A stretch of 64,000 nucleotides of DNA. Source: Candidatus Entotheonellaceae bacterium (GTDB taxonomy: Bacteria; Tectomicrobia; Entotheonellia; Entotheonellales; Entotheonellaceae). Positions within the stretch are counted from its first letter, which is position 1. Each line of letters begins with the position of its first letter. The notes below the pieces were generated by a model that searched no databases, was not told the origin of the DNA, and saw nothing but the letters and a program-made list of their open reading frames with translations. The stretch lies in the NCBI GenBank assembly GCA_965238075.1, contig OZ250173.1, forward strand, positions 160,001 through 224,000. The letters are read 5' to 3'. Of the stretch, positions 4,670 to 29,509 are shown in pieces. The position numbers and the translations under genes were made by a program.

Positions 4670-4826
4670 TAGAGCATTTTGGTTCTGATTGAATCGCTCA
4701 ATGCTCCAAGGCGGTCATTCCGGGCTTGACCCGGAATCCAGCGGCCCCCGAAAACCTCTGGACTCCGGCTTTCGCCGGAGTGACATGGACTTAATGTCAA
4801 GCCATTATGATCCGAAAGTGGTCTAG
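4670..4826 (+). repeat. ~157-bp miniature inverted-repeat element containing a REP-like palindrome pair (copy 1)
   Basis: Ends TAGAGCATTTT...AAAGTGGTCTAG; internal GTCATTCCGGGCTTGACCCGGAATCCAG and CTGGACTCCGGCTTTCGCCGGAGTGAC; near-identical to 6255-6413 (-) and 22416-22574 (+). Confidence 0.92.
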
Positions 4827-6254: not shown

Positions 6255-6413
6255 CTAGAGCACTTCTGGATCATAATGGCTTGACATTAAGTCCATGTCA
6301 CTCCGGCGAAAGCCGGGGTCCAGGGGTCTTCGGGGGCCGCTGGATTCCGGGTCAAGCCCGGAATGACCGCCTTGGAGCATTGAGCGATTCAATCAGAACC
6401 AAAAATGCTCTGG
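6255..6413 (-). repeat. ~157-bp miniature inverted-repeat element (copy 2, inverted)
   Basis: Reverse complement of copy 1 with few substitutions; plus strand starts CTAGAGCACTTC and ends AAAAATGCTCTGG. Confidence 0.92.
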
Positions 6414-15337: not shown

Positions 15338-16401
15338 TGCGTGTGCAGAACGTTGAGGAGGCGGATGTGAGTGCGGAGAACGGCGGCGCCTTGTTGGACG
15401 TCAGAGACCTGCAGAAGCTCTTCCCGATTCACAAGGGCTTTTGGAAGCGGACCGTGGGGCATGTGCGGGCCGTTGATGGGGTGAGTTTCACCCTCAATGA
15501 GGGAGAAACGCTCGGGCTCGTGGGGGAGAGCGGTTGTGGCAAGACCACCACCGCACGCTGTATTTTGCAAGCGCTGAAGCCAACCCAGGGACAAATCTTG
15601 TTCCGCACGGAGGCGGGTGCCGTCGTCGATTTGGCCACCTTGGACAAAACCGAGCTGCGGGCGCTCCGACGAGAAATGCAGATGGTCTTCCAAGACCCCT
15701 TTACGTCTCTCAACCCGCGCATGACTCTGCTCGACATTGTGGGCGAGCCTTTACGAGTACATGGGATGAAGAAGCGCCGTGAACGCGAAGCGCGGGTGGC
15801 CGAACTCCTGCGTCTGGTTGGGCTGCGGGCGGAATACATGCGGCGCTTCCCGCACGCCTTCAGTGGTGGCGAACGGCAACGCATCGGCATTGCCCGGGCT
15901 TTTGCGCTGCATCCACGCCTGGTGATCGCCGACGAGCCGGTATCGGCGTTGGACGTCTCTGTACAAGCGCAAATTCTTAACTTGCTGCTTGACCTGCAAA
16001 CGGAGCTGCGACTGACCTACCTTTTTGTGGCGCATGACCTGAGTGTGGTGAAGCATATTAGCGACCGGGTGGCCGTCATGTATGTTGGGCAGATGGTCGA
16101 GTTGGCGCCCACTGAGCAGCTTTTTATGGCTCCCAAACACCCTTACACGGATGCCCTGCTTTCCGCCGTGCCTGAACCCGACCCGCGCCAGCGTACACGA
16201 CGCGTTGTCCTGCAAGGCGAGGTGGCCAACCCCGCCGATCCGCCCTCCGGGTGTTATTTTCACCCCCGTTGTCCACATGCAGTTGAGGTTTGCCGTACGC
16301 AGGCGCCGACGTGGGAAGAGGTCGCACCGCAGCATTTTGCGCGCTGTCACCGCGCCCAAGAGTTGCAACTCTTGGGTGTGGAAGGAGTCGCAAGGACCTA
16401 G
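15337..16401 (+). CDS. ABC peptide transporter ATP-binding subunit (DppF/OppF type)
   Basis: [37 protein letters not shown] stop/start overlap with the previous gene. Confidence 0.93.
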
Positions 16402-16536
16402 GGCCTGTGGGTCAATAGCGGCACCTCGCCGGGCGCAATGCCGCAATTGTCGACATAAGCGCCCATGCGTGCCATTTGAGTTGCCTGGCGACCCAAGAAA
16501 AGGCGTTTGATCCCTTCCGAGTCACAACGCCATCAT

Positions 16537-18156
16537 CTATTCGCTTGTCAACGGACCAAACCGTGCCGGCGGCTTGCGGTGTTGGGTGCCTTGTTCATAA
16601 GCATACGTATACCGGACGAGCTTACCTTCTTCGAACTCCTTCGCGATAAAGGTCAAGCCGGTTGGCAACCCATGATCGTTCGTGAATCCCGTGGGGACCG
16701 CGATGGCGGGCATGCCGGTGTGAGGGGAAATATGCTGGCTGTTGTCGCCATTGGGACTGTCCATGTCCCCGATTTTCCGAGGCTGATTGCTCCAGGTGGG
16801 GTAGACGAAGGCATCTACCTCGTGCTTGTCCATGGCTGCCTGAATCGCATTGCGAAACTCCTGGTTCTTCGCTTCGAGCTTTACACTCGTACAACTTCGT
16901 TCCGCAGGGTTCAGGTCTTGTTCCAGCGCAAATTTCATGCGTCCGTCGATATAGGGAAGATACAAGCCTGACGCGACGACTTCTCCCAGTTTTTTATAAG
17001 GTGCCTCAGGACCCAAGGTATCGAGATAGTTGTTGAAGTCAAAACGGAACGTGTTACACCATAGACGCCATGGGTCCGATTTGTCTTTCCCGTGGATCAT
17101 CTCTTCGAATCTGGGAATATCCATCTCAACCATGGTGGCGCCCAGGGCGCTCAAGTCTTCGACGGCTTGGTTGGTTAAGCGCCTGATCTCGGGGTCTGTG
17201 GTTTCCTGATTGAGGTGATAGCGAAAAACCCCGATGCGGGCACCCTTCAAACCATCCTTATCCAGAAACTTCAGGTAAGAATCCTCCACTCGACCGATGC
17301 TGGCCTCCGTCACCGGGTCCTGGGGATCATGCCCCGCGATCACCTCCAGAACGCGCACCGCATCCTCGACGGTACGACACAACGGCCCGCCGATGTCATT
17401 ACGCAAGAACAGCGGGATGATGCCGTCGCGGCTGGTCAGCCCCATCGTCGAACGTATCCCCACCAGACCGTTATGCGAGGACGGCCCGCGAATGGAATTC
17501 CCCGTGTCCGTGCCGAGTCCGATCACCCCCAGGTTGGAGGCAATCGCCGCCGCCGTACCCCCACTGGAGCCGGCCGGGACACGACTCAAGTCGTACGGGT
17601 TTCGGGTAATGCCATCGATAGAACTGACCGTGACGTAAGGACTGAAAGCCAATTCCGCCATATTGGACTTGCCGAGAATAATCGCCCCCGCCTCGCGAAG
17701 CTTCTTGATCTGGAACGCATCGTCAGGCGGCAGGGAGCCTTTGAGAGCCAAAGTGCCACCAGCAGTCTGCAAATCATACGTATCGTAATTGTCTTTCACG
17801 ACAGCCGGAATCCCGTGCAACGGCCTGAGCTGTCCCGTACGCTGAAATTCCGCATCCAATTCGTCCGCCCGGCTCAAGGCATTCGGGTTGAGCACAACGA
17901 AAGCATTCAATCTGGTGCTCTCGTCATAGGCCTCGATCCGATCCAAATACATCTGCACCAATTGCCGAAAGGTCAGATTTCCCGCTTTGACGTGATGGTG
18001 TATATCCGCAATCGTCGTTTCCATGATATTGAAGGTGTCCGACTGAGCAAGCGCCTGATCATTCACGATAAGGCCCTGCATGCCGAAGCTGAAAGCCATC
18101 ACGACAAATGCCATGGCCATTTCAAAAATCCGCAGCTTCTTAACAATTTGCCTCAT
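16537..18156 (-). CDS. Amidase-signature family amidase with N-terminal signal peptide
   Basis: [24 protein letters not shown] (Ser-cisSer-Lys triad); AAGGAGG RBS. Confidence 0.92.
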
Positions 18157-18216
18157 GGCATACCTCCTTCTTGTTGCGACAAAATTGCGGCCAGGAGTCG
18201 GGATCTCGTGCGCTGC

Positions 18217-18244
18217 ATGTTAAAGCGACCTTCCATGGTGTCAA
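18217..18244 (-). promoter_or_regulatory. Candidate sigma70 promoter for the amidase gene
   Basis: TTGACA-16 nt-TAACAT on the minus strand, ~60 bp upstream of the start codon. Confidence 0.45.
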
Positions 18245-18404
18245 GTCCTTTGTCTTCTCGATACCACGGCGGCGGCAAATGGCAGTTTCTGGCGACTATG
18301 TGAACAATGTGGTGGCCATGGCCCCAAGTGACCATTTTACGAACACCCAACCCTGCAGCTGGAGGCACAAGAGGTATCGGGTGGGGTTTTGGGGAGTGCG
18401 AGGT

Positions 18405-18649
18405 TGGCACAGACGGGCGAGCGCCGCGTCGGCCCGTGGGCGAGCCGCCCCGATACTGACTGCTGACTGACCGTTTCGGGATACACCCCAAGGCGCTCGG
18501 CAATATCGCCCCGGTGACCCCTTGCTGACGTAGTTCGTTTACCATCCAGTAGTCCTCTTGGGTGAGCATGCTTGCCTCCGGTTTCTTGGTGAAACCAGAG
18601 GGTTGCACGGGTCACTTGAGAGGACATCTTAAAATGCCGTTTTGGGGAC
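18405..18649 (-). pseudogene. istA: IS21-family relic: degraded istA 5' end plus part of the left end
   Basis: ATG 18569 gives MLTQEDYWMVNELRQQGV, continuing out of frame as GDIAERLGVYPETVS and RGGSPTGRRGARPS (IstA HTH); CCCCAAAACGGCATTTTAAGATGTCC resembles an IS21 subterminal repeat. Confidence 0.7.
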
Positions 18650-18708
18650 TGACCCTGCCCCCTAGTTCCTGCCATTGGATAGTAGAGTCTGTTCACGATC
18701 GTTGCTCT

Positions 18709-19560
18709 TCACAACGCCGCTGTTAGGGCCTGCGGCGTAGAGCCATGAAACAGCTCACGTTCAGCATGCCCGTCAATACACCTGAGGCCGGCGTAGATGC
18801 TTGGCGGCAGGCCGCCCAACGAACTGTGCGGCCGGATCGTATTGTAGTCCCGCCTCCAGTCTTCAATGAGGTTGCGCGCCTCGCCTAATGTCGTGCATAA
18901 GTGCTCATTGAGGCATTCGTCCCGCAGCCTGCCGATGAAGCTTTCGACGAAGGCATTCTGGGTCGGCTTGCCCGGCGCGATGTAATGCCAGTTGATCCTG
19001 GCTTCCTGCGACCCCTTGAGGACCGCGTGACTGGTCAGCTCGGTGCCGTTATCCGAGACGATCAGGATAGGCCTGCCACGCAACGAGACGATGCGCTCCA
19101 GCTCTCGGGCAACCCGAACCCCTGAGAGCGAGAAATCCGGCACGATGGCCAAGGCTTCGCGCGAAAAGTCATCGACGATGCACAAGGCCCGAAACCGACG
19201 CCCATCGGGGCGACTTGGCACGACCCTCGGCTTGCGCGTCCCTAAAGCTCGCTTGCGGCCCCGCCTACGTCGCACCGCAAGCCCCTCTTCACGATAGAGG
19301 CGAAAGAGCTTCTTGTGATTCACCAGGGTGCCCTCACGTCGTAACAGGATGCCCAAGCGCCGATAGCCAAACCGGCGGCGCTCGCCGGCCACCATCTTTA
19401 GCCGCTCTCTCAGGGCCGCGTCCGTACCCAGCTTCTTGTGATACTGGAACGTGGAGCGATCCAGCGCCACCAGCTTGCACGCCCGCCGCTCGCTCAAGCC
19501 GTGTATCGTCATCACGTGATGCACGGCTCTTCGCTTGGCGTCGGGCGTCAGAAGTTTTTT
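18709..19560 (-). pseudogene. IS3 OrfB (integrase core) with an in-frame internal deletion
   Basis: [40 protein letters not shown] present; the W(S)xDF segment is missing between PSRP and DGRRFR. Confidence 0.8.
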
Positions 19561-19811
19561 GTCGCCAGCTCCTTCAGGGCGGCGTTGTCCAGCATGGCCT
19601 CGGCCAGGAGTCGTTTGAGGTTGCCGTTTTCCGCCTCCAGGGCGCGTAGCCTTCGCGCATCGCAGACGGTCATGCCACCAAACTTGGCCTTGTACTTGTA
19701 GAAGGTGGCGTCGCTGATGCCATGCTTGCGGCACACCTCGGAGGTCTTCAAGCCCGCCTCTTGCTCGCGGATCATGGCGATGATCTGCTGGTCCGTGAAT
19801 CTACGCTTCAT
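19548..19811 (-). CDS. IS3 OrfA (HTH)
   Basis: [11 protein letters not shown]...[22 protein letters not shown]...[14 protein letters not shown]. Confidence 0.9.
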
Positions 19812-20492
19812 AGAGTCCATTCTCCCAACTCCAAGGGACTCTACATCGTCGCGGCCCGGATTCAAGGGGCTGGGTCACTGGAGGTCCTCGAATCTGTCGC
19901 GGATGTTGCCCGGGGTGAAATACAGACAGAGCACGACGTCGTAAAGGCATCCTCGATGTGCCAGCGCGGCATCGCCCACAAAAATTCGGGCATTGTCGAT
20001 ATGTTCTTTTCGCCAGAGGGCACGAGCGGCTTCCGCGATGGCCGAGGCCCGCAAGACCGCTTCTCCATGCACGAATGCCCTGGCAAGAACACGAACTCGC
20101 CAGGGCACTCCTTTTCACCCGGCACCACAAAAGCATCCCACCACGAGCAGCAGGCCGGAAACAGCACCGAGCAGGGGCAAGCGCACGCTCTACATGGTGG
20201 AGTGGATCAAACATCCCGAACTGCGGTTCATGCCAGGTAGGCAGGTCTGTGGAGACTGCTGTCAGCGGTTGTCGGGAAGCGATTTGGCAAGCGTCAACAG
20301 ATGCGACGATCAAAGGGCGGTTCCACCTCGTGCTACAGACCGGGCGCGAACCCTCGACGGAATGCTGCGGGAGAAAACTCGAGCAGTGGTACCCGAGACC
20401 ACAGGCAGGGGACAGCACCCCCGAAACGGAACCATGCGCTGCCCGAATGCCTCAACTTTTTTGCTCCCCTAAACCACGATTTCGGTGGCCTC

Positions 20493-21464
20493 TCAAGGAT
20501 CGGTGAGATGGAGATTCAGCGGTAGGTTCCCGTCTTCCGAGTCAACAATGTACTTCTTCACTTTGGGGAGGATCTTTTCCATGGCTTCCAGGTAGAGTCG
20601 GATCCTCGTTATATCGGGGGCCTTTTCGTACTCGGTAAGCAAGGCCAGAAACCGACCGCTGTTGCCGATGGCTTCCGCCGTTGTCTGTTCCTTGTAGCTT
20701 TGCGCTGCCAACACGAGCGTACGGGCCTCACCTCTGGCTTTGGGCAGCAGATTGTTCACATACGTCTTTGCTTCGTTGATCTTCTTGTCGCGGTCGGCCT
20801 GGGCGTTAACCACATCCTGGAAAGCCTGGGCGACCGACTTATCCAGCGTGATGGTCATGATATTGGCAGACGTGACCTGAACACCACTGTGGTAGCGGTC
20901 CAGTGCGGTTTGGGTACTGTTCTTGACGTGCTCCTGAATCGCCAGCCGTCCGGTGGTGAGTACTTCATCGACTGACATCCCGATCACGGCGGCGGTTAGA
21001 ATCGCCTCCGCCAAACTGCCAATGAGTGTTTGGGGCGCTTCGACTTCGAACAGATAATCAGTCGGTTGTTGAACGACGTATTGCAGCACCATACCCACGC
21101 CGATGATGTTGGTGTCTCCGGTCAAGAGTTCGATGCCTGTTATCACCTCTCCTTCCACCTCCGGGAGGACGAATCCTACTCCGCTTTTCATCACCGCGGT
21201 GGTCTTCAAGGTATCGACCCGATCCACGGGCCAAGGCAGCCGGTAATGTATCCCGGGCCCCAGTCGGGCGGCGAGACGTCCAAAGCGCCGTACCACGGCT
21301 TGCTCGTCCGCAGCCACAGCAAAAATACCCGAGGCGAGGTAGAGCAGTATGAGGACAACACCGAGGAGCCCCCCCAAGAAGACACGCTTCAGCATCCACG
21401 ACGCACCGGCGGTGGGAGCGATGTCATCATGGTCCGGGGGAGACTGGGAGGCGGTTGTGTCCAT
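20493..21464 (-). CDS. hflK: HflK-type SPFH/band-7 membrane protein
   Basis: Single N-terminal TM, VVRRFG..PGIHYRLPWP, LLTGDTNII, AFQDV..AQ.D, PKARGEA, RLYLEAME..LP. Confidence 0.9.
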   Translation of the reverse strand: MDTTASQSPPDHDDIAPTAGASWMLKRVFLGGLLGVVLILLYLASGIFAVAADEQAVVRRFGRLAARLGPGIHYRLPWPVDRVDTLKTTAVMKSGVGFVLPEVEGEVITGIELLTGDTNIIGVGMVLQYVVQQPTDYLFEVEAPQTLIGSLAEAILTAAVIGMSVDEVLTTGRLAIQEHVKNSTQTALDRYHSGVQVTSANIMTITLDKSVAQAFQDVVNAQADRDKKINEAKTYVNNLLPKARGEARTLVLAAQSYKEQTTAEAIGNSGRFLALLTEYEKAPDITRIRLYLEAMEKILPKVKKYIVDSEDGNLPLNLHLTDP

Positions 21465-21467
21465 GAT

Positions 21468-22385
21468 CTACTCTTGTGTCTGCGGCTGCGGATCAGGGTC
21501 CAACAGTTGCAGGGCTTCTGCATCGGCAGGAAAGAAAACGGTGGTGTTAGCATCCAGAAATTTCTCGTAAGCCTCCAGGGTGCGGAGGAATTTATAAAAT
21601 GGCGGATTGGCACGGAAAGCCTTGGCGTAAATTCGCATGGCTTCCGCATCGCCTGCACCCTTCAAGCGCTCCCCCTCTTTGTACGCTTCGGCCAGGATAT
21701 AGCCCTTCTTCCGTTCGCCCGCAGCGATAAGCTTCTTGAATTCTCGCCCTCCTTCAGAGCGGTGTCGCATGGCGATCCTGCCCCGTTCCGCCTTCATACG
21801 CGCAAAGACACTGGCGCGGTTTTGCTCTGGAAACATCAATTGCCGCAGCCACACGTCCACCACCTCGATACCGTAGTGCGACAGCGCTGCCTTGGAGACA
21901 CGCCCCCGGATCTCGGAAAGAATGGTTTGGTACTGGGTTTCCTGGCCGCGCGGAGCGATTATGGCAGCGAATGGATAGGTCCCCAGAACCGTACCGATTT
22001 CCGCAAAGACGATGTCGATAAGCCGGGCCTCGGCCTGTGTCCCGGTAACTACACGCTCTAGAAAGGCCTCGGGTTCCGCGATCTTCCACGTCACCAGGCT
22101 TTGGACCACAATGTTTTTCTTATCCTGGGTGAGATATTCGGCCCTGGGAGGTTTAAAGCTCAACAAGCGTTTTGGCAGGCGTACCACGCTTTCGATGGGG
22201 GTGGGCAACTTGAAGCGCAACCCAGGCTCGTCGATGACGCGCATCACCTGGCCGAAGCGGGTAACCACCACGTACTCTGTGATGTCGACAGCAAAAAAAC
22301 TCGCCTTGAGCCCCACGGCAAGGAGCACGACTCCCAAAAGCGTCAGTGTTCTAACGAGCTTGGTTTGGAAGACTGTATGTTGCAT
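21468..22385 (-). CDS. hflC: HflC-type SPFH/band-7 membrane protein
   Basis: VVTRFG, PGLRFKLP, LTQDKKNI, YGIEVVDV, RMKAER, GAGDAEA.RIYA, FYKFLRTLEAY; alternative GTG start at 22394. Confidence 0.9.
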   Translation of the reverse strand: MQHTVFQTKLVRTLTLLGVVLLAVGLKASFFAVDITEYVVVTRFGQVMRVIDEPGLRFKLPTPIESVVRLPKRLLSFKPPRAEYLTQDKKNIVVQSLVTWKIAEPEAFLERVVTGTQAEARLIDIVFAEIGTVLGTYPFAAIIAPRGQETQYQTILSEIRGRVSKAALSHYGIEVVDVWLRQLMFPEQNRASVFARMKAERGRIAMRHRSEGGREFKKLIAAGERKKGYILAEAYKEGERLKGAGDAEAMRIYAKAFRANPPFYKFLRTLEAYEKFLDANTTVFFPADAEALQLLDPDPQPQTQE

Positions 22386-22415
22386 TGTCAGCACTCACGC
22401 GGTCTGCTAGGCCCA

Positions 22416-22574
22416 CTAGAGCATTTTCGGTTCGGAATGAATCGCACAATGCTCCGAGGCGGTCATTCCGGTCTTGACCCGGAATCCAGCGGCCCCCGAA
22501 AACCTCTGGACTCCGGCTTTCGCCGGAGTGACATGGATTTAATGTCAAGCCATTATGATCCAAAAGTGCTCTAG
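22416..22574 (+). repeat. ~157-bp miniature inverted-repeat element (copy 3), inside the SPFH operon
   Basis: CTAGAGCATTTT...AAAAGTGCTCTAG; the terminal CTAG overlaps the TAG stop of the permease-HflK gene. Confidence 0.92.
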
Positions 22575-24781
22575 CGATTTTGCTTCATGCCATTGGGTTC
22601 GAGCAACCACAGATCGAGTTCGTTGACATCTTGACGAACCGGCCGAAGGAATTTCTGCACCGGTGGAAGGACCTCCTCGGCGGTCTCGAGGCGCAGGCGA
22701 AATCGGGTGAGATCGGGGGCATCCTGGTATGCGTTCTGGCGCAGGCTGTAGGCCATTGCGTCGCCCTCGGCCCGCAAGATCTTTTCTTCTCGAAAAGCCA
22801 AGGCTTCCTCAATCATGGCCGCGGCCTCCCCTGAAGCGAGATTCACCTTCTCTCCGGCAAAGGTCAGGGCGCGATTTATGATATGCATTTTGTCTTCCTG
22901 TGCGCTGGCCACGTCCCGAAAAGCCTGATGCACGTCCTGGGGGGCATGCAGGTTGAGGAAACTGAGGGATACCACCTGCATGCCGGCCTGGTAGGCGTCC
23001 AAGAGATCTTGCACCCGCGCCAGACTTTGGCGCTCCATTGTGCCCCGCGCGGTCGTCAGAACCTCGTCAATACTGATTGTGCCGACCGTCTCTCGCAGCA
23101 CAGACAGGATCAGACTGCGTACGAGTGCGTCCGGCGCCGAGATGTTATAGGCATAGGCAATCGCATTATGGATGCGATATTGCACCGCAACGCTAAGGTC
23201 AACAATGTTGGCATCACCCGTTAACACGAAGGCCTCATCATCAACCTTCTCCTTTTGGAACCAGAAGCCAGTTGAGGCGATCGCCATGGGTACAGGGTTG
23301 CCCGGTCCGCCAACGGTCAGACGCTGTCGCGCCTGGGCGCGCACCGTGCCGCTCTGCGGGTCAGTGCTTCTGAAGCCGAGTTCAATGCGTCGGATCAGGT
23401 CCTTGTGCACGATCTGATGACTCGCAATAGGCCAGGGCAGACGGTAATGAAAACCAGGTGACAACTCCCCGGCCACAATTTGGCCAAAGCGCGACTTAAT
23501 GCCTACTGCTCCCGGTGGCACAGCAAAAATGCCGCTCGACAGATACAGCAGGGCTAACGCGAGCGCGGTAGCGCCTTGTAAACGCACGGCCGTCAGATGC
23601 ACCCCTGTATGGGCGGTGAGGCTATCGCGCACCCCCAGCCATTCCTCTGGTACATGGGTGCGTCGCATACTGAGGAACAACAAAGCTATGAAAATCACGG
23701 CGGCAGCGACTTTGACCTGTTCAGGCACCCCGCCGGTAGCACGTCCAAAGGTCGCCTGCGGTTCTATGTCCCAGGCCTGATAGAGCCAATTCAACGTATA
23801 GCCGGCCAACAGGGTCATCACCACAATGGCGCCCAGGTAGATGGCAACGATCTTCCGTCCCAGAAATTTCAACAGGATAGGAAAACTTCCCAGGTTTGTG
23901 GCTGGACCTGCCAGCAGAAACACCAGCGCGGCCCCAGGGTTCAACCCCTTCAGCACCAGTGCCGCAGCAATCGGGGTCGAGGAGGACGCACACGTGTATA
24001 TGGGGATCCCGAGGATGAGCATGGCCACCATGGTGGTGAAGCCGCCGCTCAAATAGCGTTCGATGATGGAGGCAGGCAAGAGGACTGCCACGAGGCCCGA
24101 CAGGACAATGCCCAGCACCAGCCAGTGACTGGTATCGTCCAGCAAGTCACGGAAAGCATAGGTAAAGATCGTTCGGACAGTCGTATAGGACCCAACTGAT
24201 GCTCCTGGTGTGACTGCCTTGTCGCTTTCAGCATGAGATAAGTGGGAAGTATGATCATGGTCATGAGTATGGGTATGATGCGGTGTGACTGTATGCGGCT
24301 CTGGCAGAGTTGTGTCGGGATGGGAGGCGTCCTGTTCTACCGCAGGTTCGGTGGTGGTGGTTTCCCTCTCGCCCCAAAAATTGGTTGCGATGCCAGCAGC
24401 GATCGCCGTGGCCATAGCAGACAAGGGGCGAAAAATGGTCATCAGTGGATCCAGCAAGGCGTAACTCAAGCTGATTGAATCTACTCCCGTCTCCGGGGTT
24501 GCAATGAGAAATGAGACAGTCGCCCCTGGCGTTGCGCCCTGTCGCCGCAATCCCAAGGCCGTAGGCAACACCCCGCAGGAGCACAGAGGTAGTGGCATGC
24601 CCAGCGTTGAGGCCCATAACACCGACTTGATCTTACCGGTACCGAAGAAACGCAGGAGGGTTTTCAGAGGCATGAGAACAGCGAGAACACCGGCGACCAG
24701 AAAGCCGAACAGGAGAAAAATGCCTGCTTCTTTGACCACAAACCAGGTCTCTTGCGCAACCTGGAGCAAAAACTCAATCAC
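22571..24781 (-). CDS. SO_0444/ArsP (DUF318)-type metal permease with His-rich loop, fused to a C-terminal HflK/SPFH domain
   Basis: N-half: PLPLCSCGVLP, FLIATPETGVDS, HHTHTHDHDH loop, PIYTCASSSTP, FLLAGPATN. C-half: RFG...PGFHYRLPWP, LTGDANIV, AFRDVASAQED, RLRLET.E. One continuous frame; alternative start 24796. Confidence 0.88.
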   Translation of the reverse strand: MIEFLLQVAQETWFVVKEAGIFLLFGFLVAGVLAVLMPLKTLLRFFGTGKIKSVLWASTLGMPLPLCSCGVLPTALGLRRQGATPGATVSFLIATPETGVDSISLSYALLDPLMTIFRPLSAMATAIAAGIATNFWGERETTTTEPAVEQDASHPDTTLPEPHTVTPHHTHTHDHDHTSHLSHAESDKAVTPGASVGSYTTVRTIFTYAFRDLLDDTSHWLVLGIVLSGLVAVLLPASIIERYLSGGFTTMVAMLILGIPIYTCASSSTPIAAALVLKGLNPGAALVFLLAGPATNLGSFPILLKFLGRKIVAIYLGAIVVMTLLAGYTLNWLYQAWDIEPQATFGRATGGVPEQVKVAAAVIFIALLFLSMRRTHVPEEWLGVRDSLTAHTGVHLTAVRLQGATALALALLYLSSGIFAVPPGAVGIKSRFGQIVAGELSPGFHYRLPWPIASHQIVHKDLIRRIELGFRSTDPQSGTVRAQARQRLTVGGPGNPVPMAIASTGFWFQKEKVDDEAFVLTGDANIVDLSVAVQYRIHNAIAYAYNISAPDALVRSLILSVLRETVGTISIDEVLTTARGTMERQSLARVQDLLDAYQAGMQVVSLSFLNLHAPQDVHQAFRDVASAQEDKMHIINRALTFAGEKVNLASGEAAAMIEEALAFREEKILRAEGDAMAYSLRQNAYQDAPDLTRFRLRLETAEEVLPPVQKFLRPVRQDVNELDLWLLEPNGMKQNR

Positions 24782-24813
24782 CTCTGCTCCCCCCACACCA
24801 AATGGCCAACCGT

Positions 24814-24869
24814 AAGAAGAGGGAAAAGAGAGGAAGAAAAGTCCCCCCCTCTCTTCATCCCTCTATCTT
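24814..24869. other. Intercistronic stem-loop
   Basis: Purine arm AAGAAGAGGGAAAAGAGAGG pairs imperfectly with CCTCTCTTCATCCCTCTATCTT, between the acetamidase and permease genes. Confidence 0.55.
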
Positions 24870-24875
24870 TCCAGC

Positions 24876-25910
24876 CTATTGGGGTAAGTACCTTTTATCC
24901 AACTGACAGGCGACGGAATAACTCGGGTCGACCGCGTTGGCGATCTCCAAGCTAGCTGCCTGCCCCAGAAGCTGGTTGGCCTCAAGCTTGTCATACCCAT
25001 AGTCTTCCACGAGCCAGTTGATCAGGTCGACACAAGCCAGCCTAAGGGCATCGATTAAGGGCCGTGTACTGCCGATGGACATGATATGGGTATCGTTTAC
25101 CAGTCTCGGCCAATTGATGCTTTTTCCCTTGATCAGATCAACGGTGAATTGCACGTCCATTGAGGTTTCGATGGCAGCACCATCGATCTCGCCATCCCCT
25201 TGGGCGGCATGGCCATCACCGATCATGAGCAACGCACCCGGCTCAAACACCGGAAAGTACATGGTGACGCCGGATACCACCTCATTGAAATCCATATTGG
25301 CACCGTGGGGGCCTGGGGTCAGGGAACTCCAGCACTCTTTTCCCGCCGTGACTGTCCCGATGGTTCCAAGGAATGGACGCAGGGGGACTTCCACTCTGCC
25401 AATTTTGCTCTTGGGCATGTCCAGGATGCCAACATTCCTCTCCAGGTCCAAGTTCCAGACAAAGAGGATATCCGGCGCCGGTTCGGTAATCATGGCCGTT
25501 TTGTACTCCGGTTCCAAGGTGCCAAAGTAGGGGATCGAACCGCCCCAACCCCAGTCCCGATTCGGAACGACTTTTTCGAGATGGACCACCAAGGTGTCCC
25601 CAGGCTCAGCCCCTTCGATGTAGAACGGACCGGTCTGGGGGTTCACCCTACTCAGATCGAGCTTGGGAAAGAGGGTCTTGTCAGTGGTGGAATAGACATC
25701 ATTAGACGCATCTCGCGTGGTGGTGATCACCGTATCACCAGGTGAGATGCGCATCGCCGGGGGGTGGGAATGGCAATAGGTGAAATACACCGTGTCACCC
25801 GGATCGTATTCCACGGTCGCCGCCGCCGCCGGGAGCGTCAAGATGAGCCCCATCATGACAGCCAACATCACCTGAACAGCTACCATCTTGCTATTGCACA
25901 AATGCCGCAT
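24876..25910 (-). CDS. Acetamidase/formamidase family protein with predicted Sec signal peptide
   Basis: PGDTV, NPQTGPFYIEGAEPGD, PFLGTIG, HGANMD, GDGHAAQGDGE...AIE; N-terminus hydrophobic, ending PAAAA; AAAGGAG RBS. Confidence 0.9.
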   Translation of the reverse strand: MRHLCNSKMVAVQVMLAVMMGLILTLPAAAATVEYDPGDTVYFTYCHSHPPAMRISPGDTVITTTRDASNDVYSTTDKTLFPKLDLSRVNPQTGPFYIEGAEPGDTLVVHLEKVVPNRDWGWGGSIPYFGTLEPEYKTAMITEPAPDILFVWNLDLERNVGILDMPKSKIGRVEVPLRPFLGTIGTVTAGKECWSSLTPGPHGANMDFNEVVSGVTMYFPVFEPGALLMIGDGHAAQGDGEIDGAAIETSMDVQFTVDLIKGKSINWPRLVNDTHIMSIGSTRPLIDALRLACVDLINWLVEDYGYDKLEANQLLGQAASLEIANAVDPSYSVACQLDKRYLPQ

Positions 25911-25990
25911 ACATGTCTCCTTTGCCTCATTACATAAAGATATAAAGAAAATCGTCACTTAGCTGAAACGTCTACAACACGACCTCTCCC

Positions 25991-26968
25991 CTACTGCCCC
26001 GCCACGTCCATCGGCCTCACCTCCTCCCTGTTCTGGAGCACTGGCGAACGCGGGTCATGAGTCCGAAAGTAGTAGGTGCTGTCATAGAGCATGTGGAACA
26101 ACTCAGAATCCAAAGCCAAGACCATTGTTGTTTGGGAATCGATGGAGCGGCGATAGGTCTGCAGCGTCCGCAGGAAGGTGTAGAACTCCGGATCTTTGCT
26201 CAGCGTCTCAGCATAAATCCGCGCCGCTTCGGCTTCCCCTTCGCCCCGATACTGCTGGGCAATTTTCAAGGCCTCGGCCATGATCGTGGCTTTTTCTCGG
26301 TCCGCGGTGGCCCGGATCTTCAGCCCTTCCTCCTCCCCTTCGGAGCGGTATCGCATACTGATGCGCGTACGCTCCGATTTCATGCGAGAGAACACACTGC
26401 TGCGGTTCTGAGCTGGGAAGTCCAAGCGCTGCAGCCGCACGTCGACCACGGCAATGCCGTAATCCCGCAGGGCAATCTCACGACATTCCCGGGCGACGGT
26501 GGCAAGGATGGCCTCAGCCCGGTAGCCCTCGGGATCCGTTGACACAAAGGCCGTCAGAGGATGCTGTCCGATGGCAGCGCCCAACGCTGCAAAGAGGATA
26601 TCGCTCAGTCGTGAAGCTGCTCCCGAGCGATCGAAAACGGTCTGGAGGAACTTTTGCGGGTCGGCAACGCGCCACAAAACAGCGCTGGCAGCGATGACAG
26701 TGGTCTTTTCCAGGGTGAGGAATTCGCCCAAAGGAGGAACGAGGATAAACAGGCGATTATCGAACCGGGTCACATTATGATAGGGATATTTGAGCTTCAG
26801 CCCCGGAGTTTTGATGACCCGTATAGGATTGCCGAATGCCGTGACCACCGCATATTCGCTGGCATCGACCGTGAAGAAGCAGAGGGTGCCCAGGAATGTC
26901 ACGCAAACGGCTGCACCCAGCAACACGACGGCCCTCACGCGTCCTTTGCCACCGGAGGTCATGGGCAC
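25991..26968 (-). CDS. hflC: Second HflC-type SPFH/band-7 protein
   Basis: VVTAFG.P, PGLKLKYP, YGIAVVDV, RMKSER, RSEGEEE, GEGEAEAARIYA, FYTFLRTLQTY. Confidence 0.9.
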   Translation of the reverse strand: MPMTSGGKGRVRAVVLLGAAVCVTFLGTLCFFTVDASEYAVVTAFGNPIRVIKTPGLKLKYPYHNVTRFDNRLFILVPPLGEFLTLEKTTVIAASAVLWRVADPQKFLQTVFDRSGAASRLSDILFAALGAAIGQHPLTAFVSTDPEGYRAEAILATVARECREIALRDYGIAVVDVRLQRLDFPAQNRSSVFSRMKSERTRISMRYRSEGEEEGLKIRATADREKATIMAEALKIAQQYRGEGEAEAARIYAETLSKDPEFYTFLRTLQTYRRSIDSQTTMVLALDSELFHMLYDSTYYFRTHDPRSPVLQNREEVRPMDVAGQ

Positions 26969-27973
26969 CGAACCTCTTATGAGAGAAGGAGCTAAATGGA
27001 AGGAACCCTGCGACGAATCAGGATTTGCCCATCCTTAGCATTACTTTCCTGATACTGTCAAGCGTCAATATTTCGGGCAGTTCTGACAGCAAGGTAATCG
27101 CACGAACCCTCCAATTTCATAGTGTTGCCCAACGCAACCGAGAAAGGAGGCGCTTCGTGCGACTGCTTCAGCGTTACTGCCGTAACTCACCCATAGCGGC
27201 CGGTCACATGCGCAACCTCCACCTGGAAGTTTGACCCTACAAGTCGGCGGTATCCCAAAAACAGACAGGGTCTTCACCGATTCCAGGCGTTTGGCACGAA
27301 AGGGTGCCGAAGAAAAAGCGGTTGTTTACCCGGTATTGGCATATGGAGATGTTCCGGGTTTATACATCGGACTCTAATGCCAGTCGTGCGCCTCGGGCAT
27401 CCGCAGGCGGGGTGTCGACGGCTTTCAGGTCCGACACGATGACAGCGCATTGCAGGCGAGACAAGGTGGGCGGGAAAAACCAGAAATAAAGCACTGGAAC
27501 AGAATATGGTGAGCGAGAGGCCCCTTTTCATAAAGTTGATCGGGGAAGGAGGTATTATCGGTGCGACGCCCTCCCCTAAGCAGGACTCTGTTCATAGCCA
27601 TCGGCGTTTTGACGACTTGAGAAATACGGCGCTGAGATTGTACATCCCGGTTGCCTCGACCCTTTTGGGTGCGATGGTGAAGTATCTCCTTTCTCCGAGT
27701 GAAATAGGCACCGCGTCAACCATCGCCGTGGCGTAACCAACTTGGAGTCCTGGAGACCCCGCTGGTTTCGGCCGTGCAAGCCATGCAGCTTAGCCCGCAC
27801 AAGGCAACAGCGCCAAGATACCCACTCATGAGAGGGTTGCCGATACTGGTGTCAGGGCGTATAAATGAAATTGATAACGGTTTTCATTATTATGTTACTG
27901 TGGCGGGAAGAACTTCCAAACACCGGGGGTAAGCCGTTCATGGACTCGGTTGGTGTGAACCTGCAAAAACTGC

Positions 27974-28189
27974 GTGCTTCAGGATTTTGGCTGCCGGCTG
28001 CGGCAGATGCGCAAGATGCGGCGGCTGCGCCAAATGGATTTGGCCTCGTTCGGGCTAAGCTACAGGTACTACCAGCGGATCGAGGCGGGCCACGTGAACC
28101 CTACCCTGATTACCATGCACCGGCTGGCATCGGCGTTTGACGTGTCGGTGCACGATTTGTTCCGCCCGGAGATTCCAACGGAGGCCTAA
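27974..28189 (+). CDS. XRE-family HTH transcriptional regulator
   Basis: FGCRLRQMR...LRQMDLA...YYQRIEAG..NPTL.TM.RLA.AF.V; the true start may be ATG 27940 with a shift in the A5 run. Confidence 0.8.
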   Translation: MLQDFGCRLRQMRKMRRLRQMDLASFGLSYRYYQRIEAGHVNPTLITMHRLASAFDVSVHDLFRPEIPTEA

Positions 28190-28423
28190 GGCGACTGATT
28201 CCGCGCAAGCCGCGCTCTCGTTGTCGCCTTAAGCGCTCCTCAGCTCACCCTTTGAACACATTGCCTCACGCCCTTCCCCCTCTGCGTCAGGCACACCCGG
28301 CAGGGGTCGCCGTGGGCTCCTGCCACTGCCTGAGGGATTGGTTGACCTCAACGGGGAACCTGACAAGGTGCAATTCGCAACACCCCGCGCCATCCACAAA
28401 GGTAGGCATTCATTCCCGTTAAC

Positions 28424-29509
28424 TCAACCGAGCCGATGCGGCTCCAGCTTTTCCCAGATGAAATCGACGCTGTGGCCGGGGCGTTCCGGGGCGCGGGCCA
28501 TGCCGTTGACGATGGGCAGAGGCACCTCCACGTAAGGCTCAACGCCGAAGCCGTGGATTTCGAGGTGGTTGGCGTTGGGAATGGCGGCCAGCAGGTGAAC
28601 GTGCAAGTCGTGGACGCCGTGCGAGGTGATGGGCAGGTTGTGGGCTTCGGCCATGTGCGCCACCTTCATCCATGGCGTGATGCCGCCGCAGTTGGTGACG
28701 TCGGGCTCGACGAACGACACGGCATTGGCAACCATGAACTTCTGGAACTCGTAAATGGTGTGCAGGTTCTCGCCGGCAGCGACGGGCGTCAGGCCCTCGG
28801 CAACGATGCGGGCGTGACCGGCGACGTCGTCGGGAATGGTGGGTTCCTCCAGCCAATAGACATCGTGCTCCGCCAGGGCGCGGGAGCGGCGAATCGCTTC
28901 GTCGACCGACCACTTCATGTTGGCGTCGACCATCAGGTGCACGTCCGCCCCGATTTCGTTACGCACCGCCCCGACGCGCTCGATGTCCTCGCCTAGCGTC
29001 TCCTTGCCCACGCGCATCTTGACGGCGTGAAAGCCGCTGTCCACCAGCTTTCGGTTCTGCGCGATCAGTTCGGGAATCGAAAAATTGAAATTGATGCTGC
29101 CAGCGTAGGCGTGCACATCCGGATTGTGCCCGCCGAGCAGGCGCCAGAGCGGAACGCCGAGCTTGCGAGCCTTGAGGTCCCACAGCGCGATGTCGATGGC
29201 CGACATGGCGAAGCTGGCCGCGCCGCCGCGTCCGGCGTAGTGCACGTGCCACCACATGTCTTTCCAGAGCGCCTCGATCAGGTCGGCATCGCGGCCTTGC
29301 AGAAACGGGCCCAGCTCGCCGTCGATGAGCGCGGCGATGCTCTTGCCGCTGTTGAGGGCGTAGGTATAACCGACGCCTTCCACCCCGTCGCCGTCGCGCA
29401 GGCGCACGACAACGAATTCGGAGTGAGTCATTTTGCCGTGCATGGAATCCTGCATGACGAACGGCAGCGGCAGGCGGTACAGAGAGGTTTCAACGTGCGT
29501 GATGGACAA
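28424..29509 (-). CDS. Mandelate racemase/muconate lactonizing enzyme family (enolase superfamily)
   Basis: SAIDIALWDL, KMRVG, MVDAN, WLEEP, GEN, SHG. Confidence 0.92.
   Translation of the reverse strand: MSITHVETSLYRLPLPFVMQDSMHGKMTHSEFVVVRLRDGDGVEGVGYTYALNSGKSIAALIDGELGPFLQGRDADLIEALWKDMWWHVHYAGRGGAASFAMSAIDIALWDLKARKLGVPLWRLLGGHNPDVHAYAGSINFNFSIPELIAQNRKLVDSGFHAVKMRVGKETLGEDIERVGAVRNEIGADVHLMVDANMKWSVDEAIRRSRALAEHDVYWLEEPTIPDDVAGHARIVAEGLTPVAAGENLHTIYEFQKFMVANAVSFVEPDVTNCGGITPWMKVAHMAEAHNLPITSHGVHDLHVHLLAAIPNANHLEIHGFGVEPYVEVPLPIVNGMARAPERPGHSVDFIWEKLEPHRLG

Follow-up and report, generated by a model that had tools for sequence, protein, structure and literature searches.

A bacterium of the Candidatus Entotheonellaceae carries a self-contained, horizontally moved five-gene envelope module in which a metal permease is covalently joined to an HflK-like SPFH (stomatin/prohibitin/flotillin/HflK/C) protein. 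The genes lie at positions 20493–26968 of a 64,000-nucleotide stretch (positions 160,001 to 224,000 of contig OZ250173.1, assembly GCA_965238075.1; hereafter, the window), all on the minus strand and in the transcription order C2, amidase, permease::HflK fusion, C1 and K, where C2 and C1 are HflC-like and K is a free HflK-like protein. As gene content, a dedicated and mobile SPFH module around a tethered metal pump, independent of FtsH by its appearance, is well supported, and a literature search (supplementary files lay outside it) found no description of a permease–HflK fusion or of the cassette.

The whole inserted block spans positions 20340–27118 (minus strand, 6779 bp) and comprises a promoter region, the five genes and a terminator-like hairpin. 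Minus-strand open reading frames (ORFs) confirmed the five co-oriented genes that an initial annotation, made from the sequence alone, had reported: C2 (25991–26968; 325 residues; Band_7, 78.3 bits; TIGR01932, 179.7 bits), whose start is likely the ATG at codon 3; the exported amidohydrolase of the FmdA/AmdA family (24876–25958; 360 residues as listed); the fusion of an SO_0444-type Cu/Zn permease to an HflK-like protein (22571–24796; 741 residues; ArsP_1 plus Band_7); C1 (21468–22394; 308 residues; TIGR01932 (hflC), 173.5 bits); and K (20493–21464; 323 residues; TIGR01933 (hflK), 226.7 bits), which starts 3 bases past the C1 stop codon. The count of two K-type and two C-type SPFH domains held as well, since the family cut-offs were passed by all four: TIGR01933 (159.4 bits) by the fused and the free K, and TIGR01932 (134.4 bits) by C1 and C2.

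Within the fusion, residues 18–374 pass NF033936, the model for SO_0444 Cu/Zn efflux proteins (374.2 bits against a cut-off of 300), and residues 425–716 pass the hflK model at 176 bits. A Cys-Ser-Cys motif of the kind described for the SO_0444 family (bioRxiv 10.1101/2022.07.06.499078) is present as C72-S73-C74 and is invariant in 58 sequences. The fusion is no peculiarity of this genome: all of the best 120 database matches carry both Pfam domains, as do nearly all of the 1191 members of the corresponding ESM Atlas cluster (ArsP_1, 100%; Band_7, 99%), and databases label these relatives either "HflK protein" or "SO_0444 family Cu/Zn efflux transporter". The AlphaFold2 model (pLDDT 72) runs from the permease helices through a linker helix and a transmembrane (TM) segment at residues 403–420 into an SPFH domain, which is followed, in HflK-like fashion, by a 73-residue helix and C-terminal strands. 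Its best fold matches in the PDB are the HflK chains of 9cz2, 7vhq and 7wi3 (~310 columns); PDB sequence and fold searches matched no solved structure to the permease half. A His-rich loop (residues 146–198) is separated from the SPFH body by six membrane helices in the model, which probably places both on the same, outer side of the membrane. That the permease would export Cu or Zn is argued by analogy with the founding member of the family, which is reported from its fitness phenotype to be needed under Zn/Cu stress in Shewanella (PMC3219624).

To place the SPFH proteins among known ones, 92 SPFH bodies were analyzed in a quick IQ-TREE run (LG+G4, with support values from the Shimodaira–Hasegawa-like approximate likelihood ratio test only; two truncated rows were omitted). 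The tree splits K from C with support of 100 and groups E. coli HflK with the host's own canonical HflK (locus L002; support 95), whereas the cassette proteins fall elsewhere: the fused K proteins, from both subtypes of the cassette described below, form one clade (97), the free K proteins a separate one (94), and the C proteins a third (94) that divides into C2 (100) and C1 (99) and leaves canonical HflC outside. Because each SPFH protein thus constitutes a conserved clade of its own outside canonical HflK/HflC, four non-redundant subunits are maintained. In keeping with this placement, the cassette proteins fail the strict models NF008181 and NF008259, scoring 29–166 bits against cut-offs of 660 and 427.

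The host's 3.35-Mb genome contains 11 SPFH-domain ORFs, among them canonical hflK and hflC, paired at 2.505 Mb and with better family-model scores than those of the cassette (288.9 and 258.7 bits), as well as two further stand-alone SPFH ORFs at 375 kb and 2.131 Mb. It also has two ftsH genes (2.94 and 3.15 Mb) and hflX (249.5 kb), and no Hfq was found in it; the statement that the window lacks ftsH, hflX and hfq is therefore correct. However, being unlinked to FtsH does not mark the cassette, as the initial annotation had proposed, because this arrangement is normal in the organism: the ftsH copies, hflX and the canonical hflK-hflC pair are all unlinked to each other. The short N-terminus noted for the free HflK is likewise real but not distinctive, as it is shared by the host's canonical HflK (341 residues), in which the family match begins at residue 43.

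We then asked how consistently the five genes occur together, using 82 loci: the best 80 of 555 confirmed relatives from metagenomes, which are biased towards the subtype in the window since the best-scoring were picked, and two loci in metagenome-assembled genomes (MAGs) that came from a single-protein scan of genome contigs. Counting a locus as evaluable when its contig leaves room for the gene in question, we found the amidase (66 of 67 loci) and C2 (44 of 45) upstream of the fusion, and C1 (69 of 70) and K (49 of 50) downstream of it. All five genes occur in order in 31 of the 82, these being the loci long enough to hold them. The exceptions to linkage are confined to L096, whose fusion is 40% identical and belongs to the other subtype, and L023. 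Gene order is thus conserved in other genomes, as a neighborhood search had been expected to reveal if the operon were a system, and the five-gene order recurs in many uncultured soil bacteria. Linkage also held when approached from the amidase: among 251 genomes of another phylum (that of the genome with locus L003), nine encode an amidase at least 70% identical, and all nine have it between C2 and the fusion; four distant amidases (34–42% identity) adjoin neither. The amidase is, moreover, the best conserved of the five genes, with a median identity of 73% (fusion, 53%).

In one genome, part of the cassette has decayed. In this Gammaproteobacteria MAG (L004, 5969–7848), three in-frame stops interrupt C2 and two the amidase, and frame-scrambled stretches occur besides, although the contig carries an intact fusion, C1 and K; because both are broken and the core is not, C2 and the amidase behave as one unit. 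Recoding of the TGA stops in this amidase, as selenocysteine or through an alternative genetic code, was considered and rejected, given that one of the C2 stops is TAA and the residues around the stops are frame-scrambled. An in-frame TAG in a flanking ABC-ATPase paralogue proved to be only a stop codon read through by the search. Two-way linkage, the highest conservation and joint decay with C2 together argue for a functional tie of the amidase to the module.

The core of the module also exists by itself. A second cluster, of three genes, lies 4 kb past the end of the window (locus L001, 4147–8270, corresponding to C1:228147–232270 in the coordinates of the host's own genome; minus strand), with an SO_0444 permease::HflK fusion of 701 residues first, then HflC-like and HflK-like genes; a P450 gene precedes the cluster, and a gene with a vWA domain follows it. 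The other five genomes of the genus all have the three-gene form only, with a fusion ~40% identical to that in the window. The subtypes differ in three linked respects: the five-gene type adds C2 and the amidase, and its fused K has an insertion. There, one loop reaches 63–69 residues and has a conserved GFWFQKE motif, as against 43–45 residues in the three-gene type and 34–35 in free K, so that the longer loop co-occurs with the amidase/C2 pair. The pair is an addition to a core of three genes that is more widespread, and any cage formed by that core cannot depend on the amidase.

The joining of a pump to an HflK-like subunit has occurred at least twice independently. In two genomes, a cation diffusion facilitator (CDF) protein, represented by the transmembrane part only of PF01545 (Cation_efflux), is fused to an HflK-like domain (L104, 575–4205, and L106, 1595–5329; fusions of 585 and 530 residues), and these genes are again followed by HflC-like and HflK-like genes. 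The same X::K-C-K layout has therefore arisen with two unrelated families of metal pump, SO_0444 and CDF, the latter being exporters. A genome of the same class also encodes a natural HflK::HflC fusion, a 647-residue ORF with two SPFH bodies (L105, 1021–2961, minus strand); its first body falls with canonical HflK in the tree, its second with canonical HflC.

The amidase passes PF03069 (FmdA_AmdA) with 115.8 bits against a cut-off of 27, and by sequence it hits 5ubu, a solved "acetamidase", with E 3.9e-61; its AlphaFold2 model (pLDDT 77) superposes in Foldseek on 5ubu, 2ii1, 3tkk and 2f4l with TM-scores of 0.67–0.87 (5ubu, 0.77–0.83). It fails the formamidase equivalog NF045496 (83.6 bits against 500) and so cannot be assigned as a formamidase proper. 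The signal peptide ascribed to it was borne out: its N-terminus has a hydrophobic stretch at residues 25–43, then AAA followed by T, the true start being probably M17 or M25, and its orthologues begin with the positive stretch, hydrophobic stretch and Ala-x-Ala-type site of a Sec-type signal peptide. Across an alignment of 41 sequences, mean column identity is 75%, and C62, H65, C209, C309 and C351 are invariant, all of them absent from 5ubu. These residues may form disulfides of an exported protein or a metal site.

Comparison with a sister genome (G005) indicates how the block arrived. Window positions 20018–20339 and 27119–27164 match adjacent bases there at 94–96%, and because these flanks are contiguous in the sister genome, 20340–27118 is a precise 6779-bp insertion, which includes 150 bp upstream of the genes. 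The GC content of the block is 0.55–0.58 (0.60–0.65 in the flanks), imperfect copies of a 12-base direct repeat occur near its two ends, and a multi-copy repeat of the genus is found to the right of the junction. The spread of the cassette is patchy: this type of amidase is absent from the rest of the host's small phylum (17 genomes searched), and named carriers include Rokubacteria, the Gammaproteobacteria MAG and a Geminicoccaceae MAG. Taken together, the precise insertion, the lower GC content and the distribution across phyla bear out the suggestion that this is a mobile accessory module. Plasmid carriage was not seen, in that none of 93 matching PLSDB records covers at least 80% of the fusion.

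The insertion is nevertheless not a very recent one, because a host-specific repeat sits inside the operon. This element (22440–22545, minus strand; 106 bp with two hairpins), which resembles repetitive extragenic palindromes or miniature inverted-repeat transposable elements (REP/MITE-like), separates the fusion gene from C1. It is matched 46 times in the host's own genome and occurs as two near-identical copies elsewhere in the window (~4692–4797 and ~6284–6389); its 22-base hairpin core is found at three places in the window against none expected by chance. Two further hairpins accompany the genes, both on the minus strand. One, which is purine/pyrimidine-rich and terminator-like (24823–24856; 15 pairs), occupies the gap between amidase and fusion and might let the upstream pair be expressed at a level different from that of the core, and the other, also terminator-like, with an 8-pair stem and then a T-run, lies within the block 3' of hflK (20378–20397). 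Metatranscriptome contigs from four runs of one study, 90–99% alike, span nearly all of the block, running across the K/C1, fusion/amidase and amidase/C2 boundaries and into the upstream flank; such contigs from RNA libraries prove neither transcription nor a single transcript, and they offer a weak hint that the block is transcribed. The 106-bp repeat explains a depth spike of 250–1000 in these contigs. No 9-mer or AT-rich palindrome was common to the regions upstream of C2 when these were sought as an operator in ~40 loci, and an Rfam scan of 19500–28500 returned a chance-level miRNA match only.

Both flanking features that had been associated with the operon lie outside the inserted block. 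The insertion-sequence relics described on one side correspond to an IS3-family element 320 bp left of the block (orfA, HTH_Tnp_1, 19548–19865; orfB, rve, 18709–19734); the element is present, but it looks intact and is not obviously a relic. It forms part of a segment (16398–20018) that differs from the sister genome, which carries 6.4 kb of other sequence there, and that also holds an amidase-signature enzyme (PF01425, 16537–18156) and a family-less 151-residue ORF. On the other side, the divergent XRE-type regulator exists as a 71-residue ORF (27974–28189, plus strand; HTH_3, 34.7 bits), but it lies outside the inserted block and has no counterpart in any of the 82 related loci. It sits in a separate 816-bp indel (27600–28415) without a match in the compared stretch of the sister genome, and is unrelated to the block. 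Around the related loci, the only recurrent metal-related neighbor is a ZIP transporter gene, divergent from the cassette in eight of them; other recurrent flanking genes (a beta-propeller protein, an ABC ATPase and an MR_MLE protein) occur in at most five loci each.

Each free SPFH protein has a single N-terminal hydrophobic segment, with positive residues before it and acidic ones after (in C2, a TM segment at 14–32 that follows a positive N-flank), and is predicted from these charges to lie with its N-terminus inside and its body outside, like HflK/HflC. The fusion has a positively charged linker ahead of its HflK anchor, and in the parallel fusions the anchor is led into by the C-terminus of a CDF pump, which is well established to be cytoplasmic; both would place the fused SPFH body in the periplasm. 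All SPFH bodies, together with the amidase, would thereby come to lie on the periplasmic side.

From this arrangement, we propose that in the fusion–C1–K core the cytoplasmic C-terminus of the permease would run into the anchor and the periplasmic SPFH/coiled-coil body of an HflK paralogue, and that the fusion, the HflC-like protein and the free HflK-like partner would together build a dedicated ring or cage of the HflK/HflC type at the periplasmic surface of the inner membrane. The pump would then stay permanently within its own SPFH microdomain or at the wall of it. C2 and the Sec-exported amidohydrolase would be an accessory unit specific to the five-gene subtype: C2 would take C-positions in the assembly, and the amidase would be a periplasmic client beside or inside it, most likely obtaining its metal (Zn or Cu) from the tethered pump or else acting in a space conditioned by it. 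A cage with tethered cargo is plausible, and the complete proposal, a tethered-pump scaffold with the amidase as its periplasmic client, is the one we favor, if at somewhat less than an even chance. A more elaborate version, in which the SPFH proteins enclose a periplasmic chamber with Cu/Zn pumps tethered in its wall, His-rich loops facing the lumen and the amidase metal-loaded or reacting inside, seems distinctly unlikely; were it true, the cassette would encode a protein-walled compartment for periplasmic reaction and metalation, passed between phyla as a single 6.8-kb block.

Several observations weigh against the tethered-pump scaffold. Apart from the ZIP gene, neighbors beyond the five genes are unrelated to metals and are not conserved, and neither the regions upstream of C2 nor the ZIP–cassette intergenic regions of the eight loci yielded a common operator or a Zur-like box. 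The side on which the model puts the His-rich loop would fit metal capture for uptake as well as hand-off after export. The scaffold cannot owe its existence to the amidase, given that the three-gene core also occurs with no amidase at all; the proposal further assumes that amidases of this subfamily depend on metal, and their four invariant cysteines could simply be disulfides. Cage assembly and the exclusion of FtsH are both points that we infer, in a genome with two ftsH genes. Speaking for the proposal are hints of zinc, namely the Zn/Cu phenotype of SO_0444, the divergent ZIP gene and an SPFH operon of Pseudomonas aeruginosa that responds to zinc depletion.

The presence of FtsH raises the question of whether the cassette simply extends a known form of control, in which its K and C proteins would hold FtsH, the permease would be a permanently presented or shielded substrate whose levels are set by regulated proteolysis, and the amidase would be merely co-expressed. 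HflK/C are reported to control the proteolysis of membrane proteins by FtsH (PMC12048511), all four SPFH proteins pass the NCBIfam HflK/HflC models, and the best fold matches are HflK chains from FtsH complexes. However, the host retains, besides the cassette, a canonical hflK-hflC pair on the side of E. coli in the tree, the cassette moves between phyla without any ftsH, and coupling to FtsH would leave the strict linkage of C2 and the amidase, and their joint decay, unexplained; we consider this explanation unlikely. The SPFH proteins might instead form loose, ordinary membrane patches and tune the pump in the way that stomatin does with channels, the amidase being an unrelated periplasmic nitrogen scavenger kept by co-transfer. 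Such patches would be in line with the subtle phenotypes reported for SPFH deletions in P. aeruginosa (PMC13086221), and scavenging with the reported hydrolysis of small amides for nitrogen by FmdA/AmdA enzymes (bioRxiv 10.1101/2024.02.22.581678), but an unrelated passenger is hard to reconcile with linkage that is perfect in both directions across phyla, with the amidase being better conserved than the pump itself, and with its decay alongside C2. Of the explanations considered, we regard this one as very improbable.

A further alternative concerns the direction of transport: under metal scarcity, the permease could work inward, its periplasmic His-rich loop capturing Zn (or Cu) and the SPFH ring concentrating the steps, while the amidase would free metal from an amide-containing carrier or serve as a zinc-sparing enzyme. 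The six helices between the loop and the SPFH domain put both on one side, and the charge bias puts that side outside; the ZIP gene that stands divergent from the cassette in eight loci encodes an importer; and in P. aeruginosa, an SPFH triplet beside the importer HmtA is reported to be induced by zinc depletion (PMC4542158). Against uptake, the permease passes the equivalog model of SO_0444, whose founding member is reported to guard against an excess of Zn/Cu (PMC3219624), the CDF proteins fused in the same manner are exporters, and no Zur-type box was found upstream. Uptake is for these reasons quite improbable, and the tethered-pump scaffold, with export as its presumed direction, remains the reading that we prefer.

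How SPFH rings and cages (HflK/C, stomatin, prohibitin, flotillin) act on the membrane proteins that they enclose is a long-standing question, and their clients are hard to define. The cassette offers a natural case in which a defined client, a metal pump, is welded to a scaffold subunit, and one subtype adds a strictly linked exported enzyme, so that it bears both on the supply of metal to periplasmic enzymes and on the zinc-regulated SPFH operon of Pseudomonas. As a compact 6.8-kb block with its own promoter region and terminator-like hairpin, absent from the sister genome, it could be transferred to a laboratory host.

The nearest described case is this P. aeruginosa operon, PaFlo5-PaFlo6-PaFlo7 (PA2437–PA2439), which, compared by its published gene content, is likewise an extra operon of the HflK/HflC family next to a Cu/Zn transporter. 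Its three SPFH genes are reported to lie beside hmtA, to show a patchy spread suggestive of horizontal gene transfer and to give subtle phenotypes when deleted (PMC13086221); 9–14 fold induction in a zinc-starved znuA mutant and raised protein under zinc depletion have also been reported (PMC4542158, PMC11761036). There, however, the transporter HmtA is a separate P-type ATPase gene, and the portions of these accounts that we draw on mention neither a fusion nor an amidase. The permease half of the cassette resembles the SO_0444 family (NF033936; ArsP-type, PF03773), whose model it passes and whose CSC motif it carries, but the founding permease stands alone and is controlled by a ZntR-like regulator, whereas that of the cassette is fused to HflK among three more SPFH genes. 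With the E. coli FtsH-HflK/HflC complex (7vhp, 7wi3, 9cz2), the cassette shares K- and C-type SPFH paralogues that each have a single N-terminal anchor and, by prediction, an SPFH body in the periplasm with a long coiled-coil helix and strands at the C-terminus; yet it has four types of subunit rather than two, one K is joined to a 9-helix permease, its clades are separate from the canonical ones, and no protease gene travels with it. Oligomeric SPFH rings or caps over a membrane protein are also seen in QmcA-YbbJ (8z5g) and human stomatin-aquaporin 1 (9zd2), both among the fold matches. As far as the accounts of those complexes used here describe them, they are homo-oligomers with a non-covalent client and no exported enzyme, whereas the cassette combines four SPFH types with a pump that is covalently part of one of them.

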